64,000 nucleotides of DNA. It comes from Eledone cirrhosa. Its lineage: Eukaryota. The translations under genes were made by a program, and so were the position numbers. This document shows, piece by piece, positions 38,401 through 41,400 of this stretch; position 1 is the stretch's first letter, and each line of letters begins with the position of its first letter. The stretch covers positions 223,572,001 through 223,636,000 of the forward strand of contig OZ024742.1 of assembly GCA_964016885.1 (NCBI GenBank), in the 5' to 3' direction. The notes under the pieces are model-generated. The model worked only from the letters and a program-made list of their open reading frames with translations, was not told the DNA's origin and did not search any database.

Positions 38401-41400
38401 ACAATATGCCCCCACACCCCCCACTGCAAGGTGGTCGTGGAGGTGCCACAGCAAAAAAGCACCTAGTCCACACTGTAAAGTGGACGTGTAGGCGCCACGG
38501 AAAAAGCACCCAGCACTCACTGTAAATGAGGTTGGTGTTAGGAAGGGCATCCAGCTGTAGAAATCAAGCCCAAATCAGTTCCTGTATGAGCAAGACAAGG
38601 TCAGCCGACCTAACACTGCCCACAATAGGACAACCTATCTAACCCATGCTAGCGTGGAAGAAGAAACGTAAAACGGTGACTATGATGATGATGATATATT
38701 GTAGACATTATGCTATTCACTATAGTGGTTCTTTACCCCTCGTAATTCAACAACATACTCTTTTGCGTGTTCTTCTCTATATATTATATATGTGTGCCTG
38801 TGTGTGTGTGTGTTTGTGTGTGTGTGTGTATGTGTGTGTGTGTATCTATGTCCATGTATGTGTAGATTTCTTTGCACTACCATAAATATATTATACAGCA
38901 TTCAAGACACCATCAGGACAATCAAACAGACGAATTAATAATTTCTCATGCCAGTCATTTAATGAACTAATGAACCTATTACTATAGCTTCATTAAGTCC
39001 ACACCTTTTGTATATAATTAGGTGTGTACCTATCTAATTCGTTACTGTTTCTACAATGGTTCTGGGAAGAAAATAGACATATTTATATATGTGTATATGT
39101 GTATATATGTATCTGTATATATGTATCTGTATATATATATATATATATATATATATAAATATATATATATATATATATATATATATATATATATATATAT
39201 ATATATATATATATATATATATATATATATATATATATATGTATGCATGTATACATATATATGTGTGTGTATGTGTGTTGTGCGTATGTGTGTGTGTGTA
39301 TTTATATATATGTATGTATAAATGTATAAATGTATAAATGTATATGCATATGTATCATCATCATCATCATCATTTAACATCTACTTTCTCTGTTGGCAAG
39401 GGGTTGAACTGGTCTTCACAGACCGAGTCAGGACTGAAGTAGGTCTACTGACATGTCTAAAATATTCAGTGACTGATCAGCCTGATTTGCATATTAACAG
39501 ACTAGCTGATCAGTCAGATCTGCATATTAGCAGATCCACTGATCAGCCAGATTTGCATATTTTCACTAGCTCTGACAGTTGGCAGGTGAACAGTGAACTG
39601 TACTGATGAAGGGTAATACCTAGAAACATTAGTATCTGCAGTTCTGTTTACATGCCAACACAAGAGCAAGAATGAGGGGCTCATTCTACTGACATGGCTT
39701 TAAAAATGAGGCTTGTTTGCATAATTGCAGATGAATTGAATATTATTATTAATATTCGAAAAACTCAGATTACGTTTATTGTATTCAGTCATGTAGAGCG
39801 AACATTTTTTTATTATTATGATTAAAATATATATATATTTTAAGTTACAAACCTGTAGAACTAAGTTTGCATTTTATTGTATTATTTTTAATATTTTCAT
39901 TTCTTGTATAAATGTCAACTTTTGACTCAAAAGTTCAGTCAACTCCTAGATAGTACTATCAAATCCTGGGGAAAACCTTTGGACCAATCAAATCAATTAC
40001 TTCCATGAAAATAATATATATACTATTGTTTCATGTGACAACCTCTCTAGTGTTGCTGCCTTGATATAATGTACCCAATATACTTTGTAATGTGGTAGTC
40101 CTGGTGCCATGATAAAATGCACCCAGTACACTCTATAAGGTGGTAGTGCTGGTGCCATGATAAAAAGCATCCAGTCCACCCACTAAGATGATAGTGCTGG
40201 TACCATGATAAAATACGCCCAATACAATCTGTCAGGTGGTAATGCTGTTGCACCTAACACATCCTATAAAGTGGTAGTGCTGGTGCTACAATAAAATGCA
40301 CCCACTATGTCCAGTGAAGAGGTAGTGCTGGTGCCACAATAAAATGCAGCTAGTACATTCTGTAAAGTAGTTGGTGCATCCAGCTGTAGAAACCAGGGTA
40401 AATATGAAACATGACAAATGAGGTCTCTGACCTGTAAACTCTTGGACCATGGCAATCTGTCCAACACAAGCTAGCATAGAAAGCAAACTTAAAATGAGGA
40501 AGATGATGATGTTTGGGGTGATTAATAAATTATCTATCTAAATTAATAACTAATTAAGGCAGTGAATTGGCAGGGTCGTTAGAATGTAAGATAGAAAGCT
40601 GGTAATATTTGTTTAGGTTATCAGTGACCTGAGATCAAATCCTGTTGAGGTCAACTTTACCTTTCATCCTTTGGAGGCTTATAAATAAGGTACTAGTCTA
40701 GTACTGGGGTCGATTTCTTCCTCTATCTCTCTTTCTCACTTCCTTTCTCTCTCTCTCTCTCTTTCTCTCACCCCTCTCTATCTCTCTCTTTCTTGCTCTC
40801 TCTCCCTCTCACTCTCTCATTATCTGGAACTAATCAGCTGCGTTCAGACCTGGTGATGGGTGAGCTCCATCAGGCTTAAAATGCTCTTTTGTGATGACAG
40901 CAACCCTATGACTCCATTGAGAGTTAAGGGCCTAGGCATGCATACAATAACTAATTAGTCGATTTTTGTTGATTTTTTTTTTCTTTTTTTTTCCAGGGAA
41001 CTTTTTTCCAAAAAGTGAACCAGAATGGAGACCAAACCCAGAATGGAGACCAAAACCAGAATGGCGACCAAAACCAGAATGGAAACCAAAACCAGAATGG
41101 AAACCAAAACCAGAATGGAAACCACAACCAGAATGGAAACCACAACCAAAATGGAGACCACAACCAGAGTGGAAGCCGCAACCAGAATGGAGACCACAAC
41201 CAAAGTGGAAGCCGCAGCCAGAATGGAGACCACAACCAGAATGGAGACCACAAACAGGTCTGTAAATAAAGCTGAAAATATACACACACACACTCTATAT
41301 CTCTCTTCCTCTCTCACACTGTCTCTCTTTCTCTTTCTTTCTTTCTACCTGGAATTCTCTTCCAGCCAACATATTTTCTTCAGTCTTTTACTTTCACCAC

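Follow-up and report, generated by a model that had tools for sequence, protein, structure and literature searches.

An array of thirteen Pro/Trp hexapeptides in the window, the stretch of 64,000 nucleotides analysed here, very probably lies in a coding exon of a secreted low-complexity protein. The fuller reading of the locus is that this 261-base exon belongs to a seven-exon gene encoding a secreted, basic and Cys-free protein of ~281 residues, rich in Pro and aromatic residues, which would form an extended material outside the cell that adheres to itself, in the role of a matrix, coating or adhesive; taken as a whole, this reading is put at even chances. Among biomaterial proteins, those that are secreted, rich in proline and built of tandem repeats are well known. 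A six-residue unit in which an invariant Trp stands among charged residues and prolines is unusual. The array and the exon around it are as follows.

41020..41253, + strand: 13 x 18 nt, P-[E/K]-W-[R/K]-P-[Q/K/N], read from the sequence and its translation.
40997..41257, + strand: repeat exon of 261 nt, phase 1-1, encoding NFFPKSE, the 13 hexapeptides and T (splice signals, strict scan).

Tandem Repeats Finder delimited the array at 41018-41257 (period 18, 13.3 copies, 86% matches, 0 indels) and translation from 41020 yields 13 units, including a pair of PEWKPK and a pair of PEWKPQ. The thirteen P-[E/K]-W-[R/K]-P-[Q/K/N] units of the original prediction are thus borne out, and so are the invariance of Pro1, Trp3 and Pro5 (13 of 13 units), the conservative R/K swaps and the four synonymous pairs GAA/GAG, AAA/AAG, CCA/CCG and AGA/CGA. 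The statement that Pro occupies every third residue was, however, mistaken: Pro is found at positions 1 and 5 of six, with a spacing that alternates between 4 and 2. Replacements in the array are limited to two E>K changes, the R/K swaps and the choice of N, K or Q at position 6. Variation affects 8 of the 18 positions of the unit and none of the 7 non-degenerate bases of Pro/Trp/Pro, which random placement would produce with P = 0.0038 (a post hoc figure). In the PEW frame 5 variant types are synonymous and 4 are replacements (2/7 and 1/8 in the alternative frames), while 10 of the 54 possible single changes in the unit are synonymous. The 9 variant types behind these counts cannot be taken as independent events; duplication of units spread several of them, which units 9 and 11 have in common. 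The synonymous excess agrees, weakly, with the proposal that selection has acted on the PEW frame.

An open frame alone means little in this genome. The repeat gave 81 protein-level matches in its own genome, and all eight of the other loci translated proved to be unrelated minisatellites, the majority open in more than one frame. What sets the array apart is its splice context and the gene model around it, not its openness. The AG of the acceptor (40995-40996) follows a 20-nt pyrimidine tract and lies 23 nt before the array, and the GT of the donor (41258-41259) lies 4 nt after it. A strict exon scan of the window passed the repeat exon as the only candidate. The claim that selection favours this frame over the METTTR and NQNGD frames is supported by the AG...GT exon that encloses the array. 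The METTTR frame is closed by a TGA at 41016-41018, within the repeat exon; the NQNGD frame is open throughout the exon, and the PEW frame is the sole one open through the seven-exon model described below. ARAGORN detected no tRNA-like gene in 38000-44000.

The exon chain was obtained with our own splice-site scan, in which position weight matrices were built with generic frequencies; the small exons and the start exon rest on these matrices and are predictions. Together with the repeat exon the model consists of the following features.

23369..23408, + strand: predicted first coding exon, signal-peptide-like, ending in phase 1 with the first base of a Gly codon (scan over 87 kb for ATG, hydrophobic core and phase-1 donor).
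27082..27129, + strand: predicted 48-nt exon, phase 1-1, 15 residues; pyrimidine tract and AG, donor GTATGT; single copy.
31291..31335, + strand: predicted 45-nt exon, phase 1-1, 14 residues with one solitary repeat motif; AG acceptor, donor GTATGT.
33034..33078, + strand: predicted 45-nt exon, phase 1-1, 14 residues; acceptor ttttcag, donor GTAAGG (11.1-11.3 bits); single copy.
46982..47137, + strand: predicted 156-nt exon, phase 1-1, six YPPM units (12-nt array) and 27 further residues; acceptor tatttcag, donor GTAAGT; single copy.
48283..48533, + strand: predicted last coding exon, 82 aa, Pro/Tyr-rich and non-repetitive, with TAA at 48531-48533; acceptor of 8.6 bits; single copy.
48735..48740, + strand: AATAAA, read from the sequence, a candidate polyadenylation signal ~200 nt past the stop.

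The start exon has a donor GTAAGT of 11.1 bits and an in-frame TAA 15 nt upstream of its ATG. Judged by eye, its putative signal peptide (13 residues and the split Gly) is short, with a hydrophobic core of 10 residues. The acceptor of the terminal exon was the best in the downstream scan. A looser scan of 184 kb returned 10 rows for the + strand and 3 for the - strand, among which collinear phase 1-1 Pro-rich exons at 27082, 31291, 33034, 40997 and 46982. All six introns of the model are in phase 1, and the spliced model of 846 nt forms one open reading frame of 281 aa; the remaining two frames contain 14 and 11 stops. Each exon tested occurs once in the genome, no paralogues of the start, YPPM or terminal exon were found in it, and the introns contain transposon remnants. 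As a prediction from sequence, this chain and its signal peptide remain a model of the gene.

Over 184 kb, read in six frames, P[EK]W[RK]P matches in just one further place, the exon at 31291..31335, located 9.7 kb upstream of the repeat exon, which encodes PEWKPKP in matching phase and further favours PEW as the selected frame. Aligned without gaps to the first 45 nt of the repeat exon, this small exon is identical at 30 of 45 positions and, over the last 34, at 27 of 34; the start of the repeat exon is its best match in the window. The homology of the solitary-motif exon to the start of the repeat exon is directly visible in this alignment of predicted exons. The array probably arose from a 45-nt exon that was duplicated and whose final 18 nt were then amplified 13-fold. 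The locus is in that case a clean example of the growth of a coding minisatellite with frame and splice sites kept.

These findings weigh on the simplest alternative, in which the array is a non-coding 18-nt minisatellite, open by chance and situated in an intron, an untranslated region or an exon of a non-coding RNA. It agrees with the abundance in this genome of minisatellites open in several frames (8 of 8 other translated loci are such arrays), with the openness of the array in two of three frames and with the failure to find a run recorded as RNA that contains the stretch, an orthologue or a protein database entry. However, a strong acceptor and a strong donor adjoin the array, a single frame runs through seven collinear exons from the ATG to the stop, a second exon with splice signals again encodes PEWKPKP, the variation spares the non-degenerate bases of Pro/Trp/Pro and all exons are single copy. 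A non-coding array is considered improbable.

Homology searches placed the protein in no known family. For the repeat exon, no homologous proteins were found at E <= 0.001 or 0.01 among 1353 and 196 word-sharing candidates, and for the terminal exon none of 3 word-sharing candidates scored. A search of protein representatives gave 124 matches at E <= 0.001. Every one is a Pro-rich repeat of low identity, without similarity outside the repeat; 20 of these sequences were inspected by eye and all were screened for Trp at period 6. A look-alike is P0010, a protein of 217 aa from one metagenome-assembly contig, which has a signal-peptide-like start and ~15 hexapeptides in which [K/R/T]-P-[D/E]-W recurs in register every 6 residues. 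In BLASTP it is 39% identical to the repeat over 77 residues, ungapped, with E = 7e-9. It differs in that positions 4-5 are Asp/Gly and a variable residue instead of Arg/Lys-Pro, and the similarity is confined to the repeats (E = 0.06 against the terminal exon); on sequence grounds, this likeness may reflect either convergence or homology. No Pfam family scored above its cut-off with the model. The only match, procyclin (PF05887), reached 21.2 bits against a cut-off of 100, a score that excludes membership; the match reflects the X-Pro rod composition that the two have in common. Six peptide strings of the repeat did not occur in any of 8.4 million papers and preprints.

The predicted protein of 281 aa contains 25% Pro, 16 W, 23 Y, 12 F, 25 K and 10 R, only 2 His and only 8 Gly, and has a pI of 9.7. 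Its sole Cys is in the signal peptide. N-glycosylation sites, dibasic sites and WxxW are absent from the 281-aa model. A single-sequence AlphaFold2 model of the repeat exon shows no helix or strand (pTM 0.15, pLDDT 74.9), which fits an extended chain and, as a model made without an alignment, would look alike for polyproline II and random coil. For the terminal exon AlphaFold2 placed helices at residues 20-36 and 49-63 (mean pLDDT 65.8). A collagen-like or beta-helix hexapeptide was rejected for want of a Gly periodicity.

Given the Pro residues at positions 1 and 5 of six and a model devoid of helix and strand, the array would adopt an extended chain. Polyproline II has three residues per turn and a rise of about 3.1 A. 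If the chain takes up this conformation, six residues would make two turns and the 13 Trp would lie on one face ~19 A apart, alternating there with the Lys, Gln or Asn of position 6, with Arg/Lys (position 4) and Glu (position 2) on the two other faces. Such a strip of indoles and cations could engage other chains or surfaces through numerous weak cation-pi and pi-pi contacts. Mussel foot proteins have a high content of cationic and aromatic residues, their cohesion and adhesion are ascribed to many cation-aromatic contacts, and cation-pi contacts are critical to function (PMC11907405). We infer the mechanism proposed here by analogy with these proteins, which are described as working by such contacts. 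Because each unit carries Glu, the net charge of the repeat exon is only +8 over 86 residues, and the exon is less cationic than typical adhesive proteins. The protein is best read as an orphan secreted Pro/aromatic/basic low-complexity protein of a matrix or adhesive; provided that the exon does code for a secreted protein of this type, cohesion or adhesion by this mechanism falls somewhat short of an even chance.

The same gene could code for a covalent cross-linking substrate, in which a transglutaminase joins regularly spaced Gln and Lys, or an oxidase joins Tyr/Trp, and so hardens a matrix such as that of a cuticle, plug or egg envelope. Such cross-linking is how small proline-rich proteins of the cornified envelope and fish chorion precursors work. 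In the repeat exon a scaffold of prolines carries 13 Lys and 8 Gln, with the Lys-rich units in its first half and the Gln units in its second, and 23 Tyr are found elsewhere in the protein. Cys is lacking beyond the signal peptide, so that disulfides cannot cross-link the protein. However, the SPRR-type repeat motif has 0 matches, and a role as Gln/Lys substrate leaves the invariant Trp unexplained; this reading is judged rather unlikely. The invariant Trp also bears on the possibility that the repeat is a passive extended spacer, or a strip that binds an outside ligand (polyphenols, chitin, another polysaccharide or a mineral face). Spacer or binding behaviour is known from the Glu-Pro/Lys-Pro rods of TonB and procyclin and from salivary proline-rich proteins, and exposed Trp commonly stacks on sugars, which counts for a binding strip. 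The sub-threshold procyclin match (21.2 bits vs 100) and the extended AlphaFold2 model without a fold agree with such a role. A spacer, however, has no need of Trp in 13 of 13 units, and there is no adjoining binding domain to hold out, the flanking exons being low-complexity themselves. We regard a spacer or binding strip as unlikely.

Tandem short units after a predicted signal peptide also recall a precursor from which many small bioactive or antimicrobial peptides rich in Pro, Trp and Arg are released by cutting, and animals do have antimicrobial peptides of this composition. However, the 281 residues contain 0 KR/RR/KK/RK or other obvious processing sites, the units are nearly neutral (Glu with Arg/Lys) and the flanking exons look structural. 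As the units are not flanked by dibasic sites, a multi-copy precursor of neuropeptides or antimicrobial peptides was rejected as a class, and the precursor reading is very improbable.

For the preferred reading, a self-adhering extracellular protein, the nearest known systems are mussel foot protein 1 and Pvfp-1. These are secreted mollusc proteins whose short units, repeated in tandem, abound in Pro, Lys and an aromatic residue; the mollusc protein here, predicted to be secreted, has such repeats in its 13 hexapeptides, besides the 6 x YPPM of the next exon. In Pvfp-1 of Perna viridis the aromatic residue is a modified Trp, which may functionally replace DOPA (PMC4275877). Compared to the Pvfp-1 class, the unit found here has six residues instead of ten and Glu in every unit, the WxxW/WxxC mannosylation motif has 0 matches and the host is a cephalopod, without a byssus. 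No named fp-1 was returned by the general protein searches or by the literature search for repeat strings. Titin PEVK is likewise rich in Pro, Glu and Lys and disordered or polyproline-II-like, and the PEWK core is one letter off PEVK. Titin PEVK, with repeats of ~28 residues (PPAK-type), belongs to a giant intracellular Ig/Fn3 muscle protein. Here a 6-residue unit with invariant Trp occurs in a predicted secreted protein of 281 aa without a Pfam domain, which sets it outside that class. The X-Pro rods of the procyclin (PF05887) and TonB type resemble the array in their alternation of charged residues with Pro and in the extended rod expected; to our knowledge, they are without Trp.

Reflectins, histidine-rich beak proteins and suckerins are cephalopod structural proteins, for which a review gives as defining motifs MDx5(MDx5)nMDx3-4, GHGxY and GGY/GYG/GGLY, respectively (PMC11931252). 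The protein studied here is similar to these in being apparently lineage-restricted, low-complexity, aromatic-rich and, in the preferred reading, self-assembling or coacervating. In the 281-aa model, however, there are 0 matches to the reflectin motif MD.{5}MD, to GHGxY-type pentapeptides of the histidine-rich beak proteins and to the suckerin modules GGY, GYG and GGLY. A published study of an octopus sucker peptide concerns calponin repeats and is irrelevant to the PEW array.

It may be speculated, as a fairly unlikely extension of the preferred reading, that the protein is octopod-specific, secreted and very abundant, and that Trp replaces DOPA/tyrosine as the sticky residue. A polyproline-II strip of 13 indoles alternating with Lys/Gln would then make the protein coacervate and cohere or adhere under water, be it in the cement of egg strings, the sucker lining or another secreted material, and the Trp may be hydroxylated as in Pvfp-1. 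If true, this would be a Trp-based bioadhesive that evolved independently, and its six-residue unit a ready design rule.

Abundance is hinted at by a comparison of four sequencing runs (X1-X4, of unrecorded kind) over 40860-41280. In X4, a small data set with 87.8 M letters of contigs, 41002-41233 is present in unitigs at a word depth of about 4,500-5,800, and such depth on a single-copy stretch in a small data set of unrecorded kind hints at an abundant transcript. If the protein is as abundant as this depth hints, it would be an unstudied major product of some octopod tissue and a natural test of Trp-based cation-pi cohesion. X4 is blank over 40860-40994 and all four runs are blank past 41233, blanks that count as no evidence; no joints, loose ends or splice junctions were seen in 40860-41280, two X4 loose ends at the skipped repeat 40963-41000 having been set aside. 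In X1-X3, of 1.4 G letters each and from another sample, the same stretch has a depth of 7-14, and a 307-nt contig spans the intron-exon boundary.

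Thirteen head-to-tail 18-nt units are indeed present at 41020-41253 of the window, as the original prediction had stated, and Tandem Repeats Finder describes the array as period 18 with 13.3 copies, 86% matches and 0 indels. Translation of the surrounding exon (40997-41257) in the frame from 40999 yields NFFPKSE, the hexapeptides, including PEWKPK twice and PEWKPQ twice, and then TG. Pro1, Trp3 and Pro5 were found to be constant across all units, in line with the proposed invariant residues, and every synonymous codon pair and Arg/Lys swap named earlier occurs among the units. 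The spacing of Pro had been misjudged: it occupies positions 1 and 5 of six rather than every third residue. Variation reaches 8 of 18 unit positions, none of them among the 7 bases at which the Pro, Trp and Pro codons are non-degenerate. Synonymous versus replacement variant types number 5/4 in the frame giving these PEW hexapeptides, compared to 2/7 and 1/8 in the other two. This pattern backs the PEW frame, a supportive but weak indication with nine variant types, some of them spread by unit duplication. The preference for this frame over METTTR holds, a TGA at 41016-41018, within the exon, closing the latter; the NQNGD frame is open across the exon.

An alternative is that the array is non-coding altogether. 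Of the other loci matched in a genome search with the repeat peptide, the eight that were translated are all unrelated minisatellites, most of them open in several frames, so that an open frame is uninformative in this 3.0-Gb genome. Many long minisatellites on other chromosomes are open in 3-6 frames over hundreds of codons (L006, L007, L010, L013, L016, L017, L020 and L022), with arrays such as PLPQYL, WRPVIGTRPQST and PQPVYC, so that an open frame within a repeat does not point to coding in this genome.

The array is set apart by its context. On its 5' side, a pyrimidine tract of 20 nt leads into an AG that ends at 40996, 23 nt before the first unit; on its 3' side, a GT donor lies at 41258, 4 nt after the last one. 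These signals delimit an exon of 261 nt with phase 1 at both borders. When the entire window was scanned for splice sites at strict thresholds, this exon was the sole candidate; the scores are rough, since the matrices use generic metazoan frequencies. Looser scans supplied collinear candidates for a predicted gene of seven exons.

Exons of the predicted gene model (window coordinates)
23369-23408, plus strand: predicted start exon, 40 nt, ending in phase 1; an in-frame TAA precedes the ATG by 15 nt
27082-27129, plus strand: predicted exon, 48 nt, phase 1-1
31291-31335, plus strand: predicted solitary-motif exon, 45 nt, phase 1-1
33034-33078, plus strand: predicted exon, 45 nt, phase 1-1
40997-41257, plus strand: repeat exon, 261 nt, phase 1-1
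46982-47137, plus strand: predicted YPPM exon, 156 nt, phase 1-1; YPPM six times over, followed by a tail rich in Tyr and Pro
48283-48533, plus strand: predicted terminal exon, 82 non-repetitive residues and TAA; AATAAA about 200 nt further

Splicing these in silico gave 846 nt with a single ORF of 281 amino acids, while the other frames contain 14 and 11 stops. A scan for Pro-rich phase 1-1 exons in 184 kb gave 10 rows on the plus strand versus 3 on the minus strand, and all exons that were checked occur once in the genome. Gene structure, though not recorded RNA, gives good support to coding in the PEW frame. Four public sequencing runs contain words of the repeat exon and none is recorded as RNA. 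Three of these (X1-X3) derive from a single sample and have 1.4 G letters of contigs apiece; in them the exon has a word depth of 7-14 and sits on a 307-nt contig spanning the intron-exon border, which looks like genomic DNA. The fourth (X4, kind unrecorded) derives from a different sample, its contigs totalling 87.8 M letters, and covers 41002-41233 in window-matching unitigs at a word depth of ~4,500-5,800. Contig depth being a poor measure, this is a hint, from a run of unrecorded kind, of a very abundant transcript with the whole array; no splice junction was seen in the runs.

A six-frame motif search of the window and 60 kb on either side (184 kb) revealed one further match, the 45-nt stretch 31291-31335, between AG and GTATGT in phase 1-1. 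It aligns gaplessly to the opening 45 nt of the repeat exon (30/45 identical), and its last 34 nt find their best match in the window outside itself in that exon (27/34). From these matches it seems that the 45-nt exon was duplicated and that the last hexapeptide of the copy was then amplified, giving the repeat exon.

Word-indexed protein searches with the repeat and terminal exons found no homologue. If octopus proteomes are in the searched collection, the gene would be unannotated or fast-evolving there; the SINE-like repeats of the window are presumably octopus-like. An exhaustive phmmer search gave 124 matches at E <= 0.001, all compositional, a few of which have Trp at period 6. One of these is P0010, unnamed and 217 amino acids long, which has ~15 hexapeptides of KPDW type after a signal-like start and is 39% identical to the array in register; another, P0072, resembles a lipoprotein and contains P-[H/Y]-W-[G/R]-P-x units. 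The similarity ends at the repeats, and such matches are look-alikes rather than demonstrated relatives. P0010, P0072, P0056, P0094 and P0120 are unrelated unnamed proteins of metagenome or bacterial assemblies with a strict six-residue Trp period beside Pro and charged residues; among the five is a hypothetical protein of Cytobacillus. Hexapeptide arrays with periodic Trp seem to have arisen repeatedly. Pfam returned a sub-threshold procyclin match alone, and the six peptide strings looked for had 0 matches in the literature searched. Secreted proline-rich tandem-repeat proteins are a known kind; new here is the Trp-centred hexapeptide without known relatives.

The predicted protein (281 amino acids, 33.9 kDa, pI 9.7, GRAVY -1.12) contains 71 Pro (25%), 25 Lys, 23 Tyr, 20 Gln, 16 Met, 16 Trp and 12 Phe, its one Cys lying within the signal-like start. 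It is most likely a secreted structural or adhesive low-complexity protein, because of the predicted signal peptide, the lack of Cys beyond it, the one-quarter Pro, the many aromatic and basic residues, the modular phase 1-1 exons and the in-exon minisatellites. A motif check of the model found no N-glycosylation sequon, dibasic site, WxxW or collagen triplets. A peptide precursor is unlikely since there are 0 processing sites. AlphaFold2 without alignment predicted neither helix nor strand for the repeat exon (pLDDT 74.9, pTM 0.15), and two helices of modest confidence for the terminal exon (pLDDT 65.8).

Polyproline II has three residues per turn and a rise of ~3.1 A. In this conformation the six-residue unit would make exactly two turns, placing the 13 Trp on one face, ~19 A apart and interleaved with the Lys/Gln/Asn of position 6; a second face would carry Arg/Lys of position 4 and Pro1, and a third Glu and Pro5. 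Weak contacts of the cation-pi, pi-pi and salt-bridge types could then form in large numbers along the Trp/cation strip, whether from chain to chain or with a surface. Mussel foot proteins are described in a review as acting via cooperative cation-aromatic contacts (PMC11907405), and for Pvfp-1 of a green mussel, modified Trp is described as taking the role of DOPA (PMC4275877). The motifs that PMC11931252 gives for known cephalopod material proteins differ from the present repeat and occur 0 times in the 281-residue model. Cohesion through Trp is by this analogy a plausible reading. As rivals, the array of the same gene could be a substrate for Gln/Lys cross-linking, or a passive rod or ligand-binding strip.

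The introns flanking the repeat exon hold tandem arrays with 49-nt (38422-38526), 48-nt (40048-40251) and 33-nt (41874-42062) units, the first two resembling pieces of a short interspersed element that is abundant. Transposon remnants form intronic ORFs at 37055-38227 (plus strand), 44057-44464 (minus) and 35162-36511 (minus). One encodes RVT_1 (reverse transcriptase) and a PHD finger, with near-copies of its peptide at 8275-8721 and 28583-28906, another a GIY-YIG domain, and the third (449 amino acids) has 0 Pfam matches. A second in-exon minisatellite, at 46984-47055, in the same predicted gene, consists of six 12-nt units encoding YPPM; the opposite strand would read GGYI repeats. About 67 kb downstream, outside the window on the plus strand, lie further AG...GT-bounded phase 1-1 exon candidates (+115166..+116299 and +121167..+121298, or 1166-2299 and 7167-7298 of the downstream flank L036). 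These encode Pro/Met/Ser-rich repeats of the PSSPPMMSPPPIPSFPPMMSPPPG type, ending in PPYYNP or PPYYDP and similar in composition to the YPPM exon, and may be parts of a neighbouring gene that is broadly alike in type.
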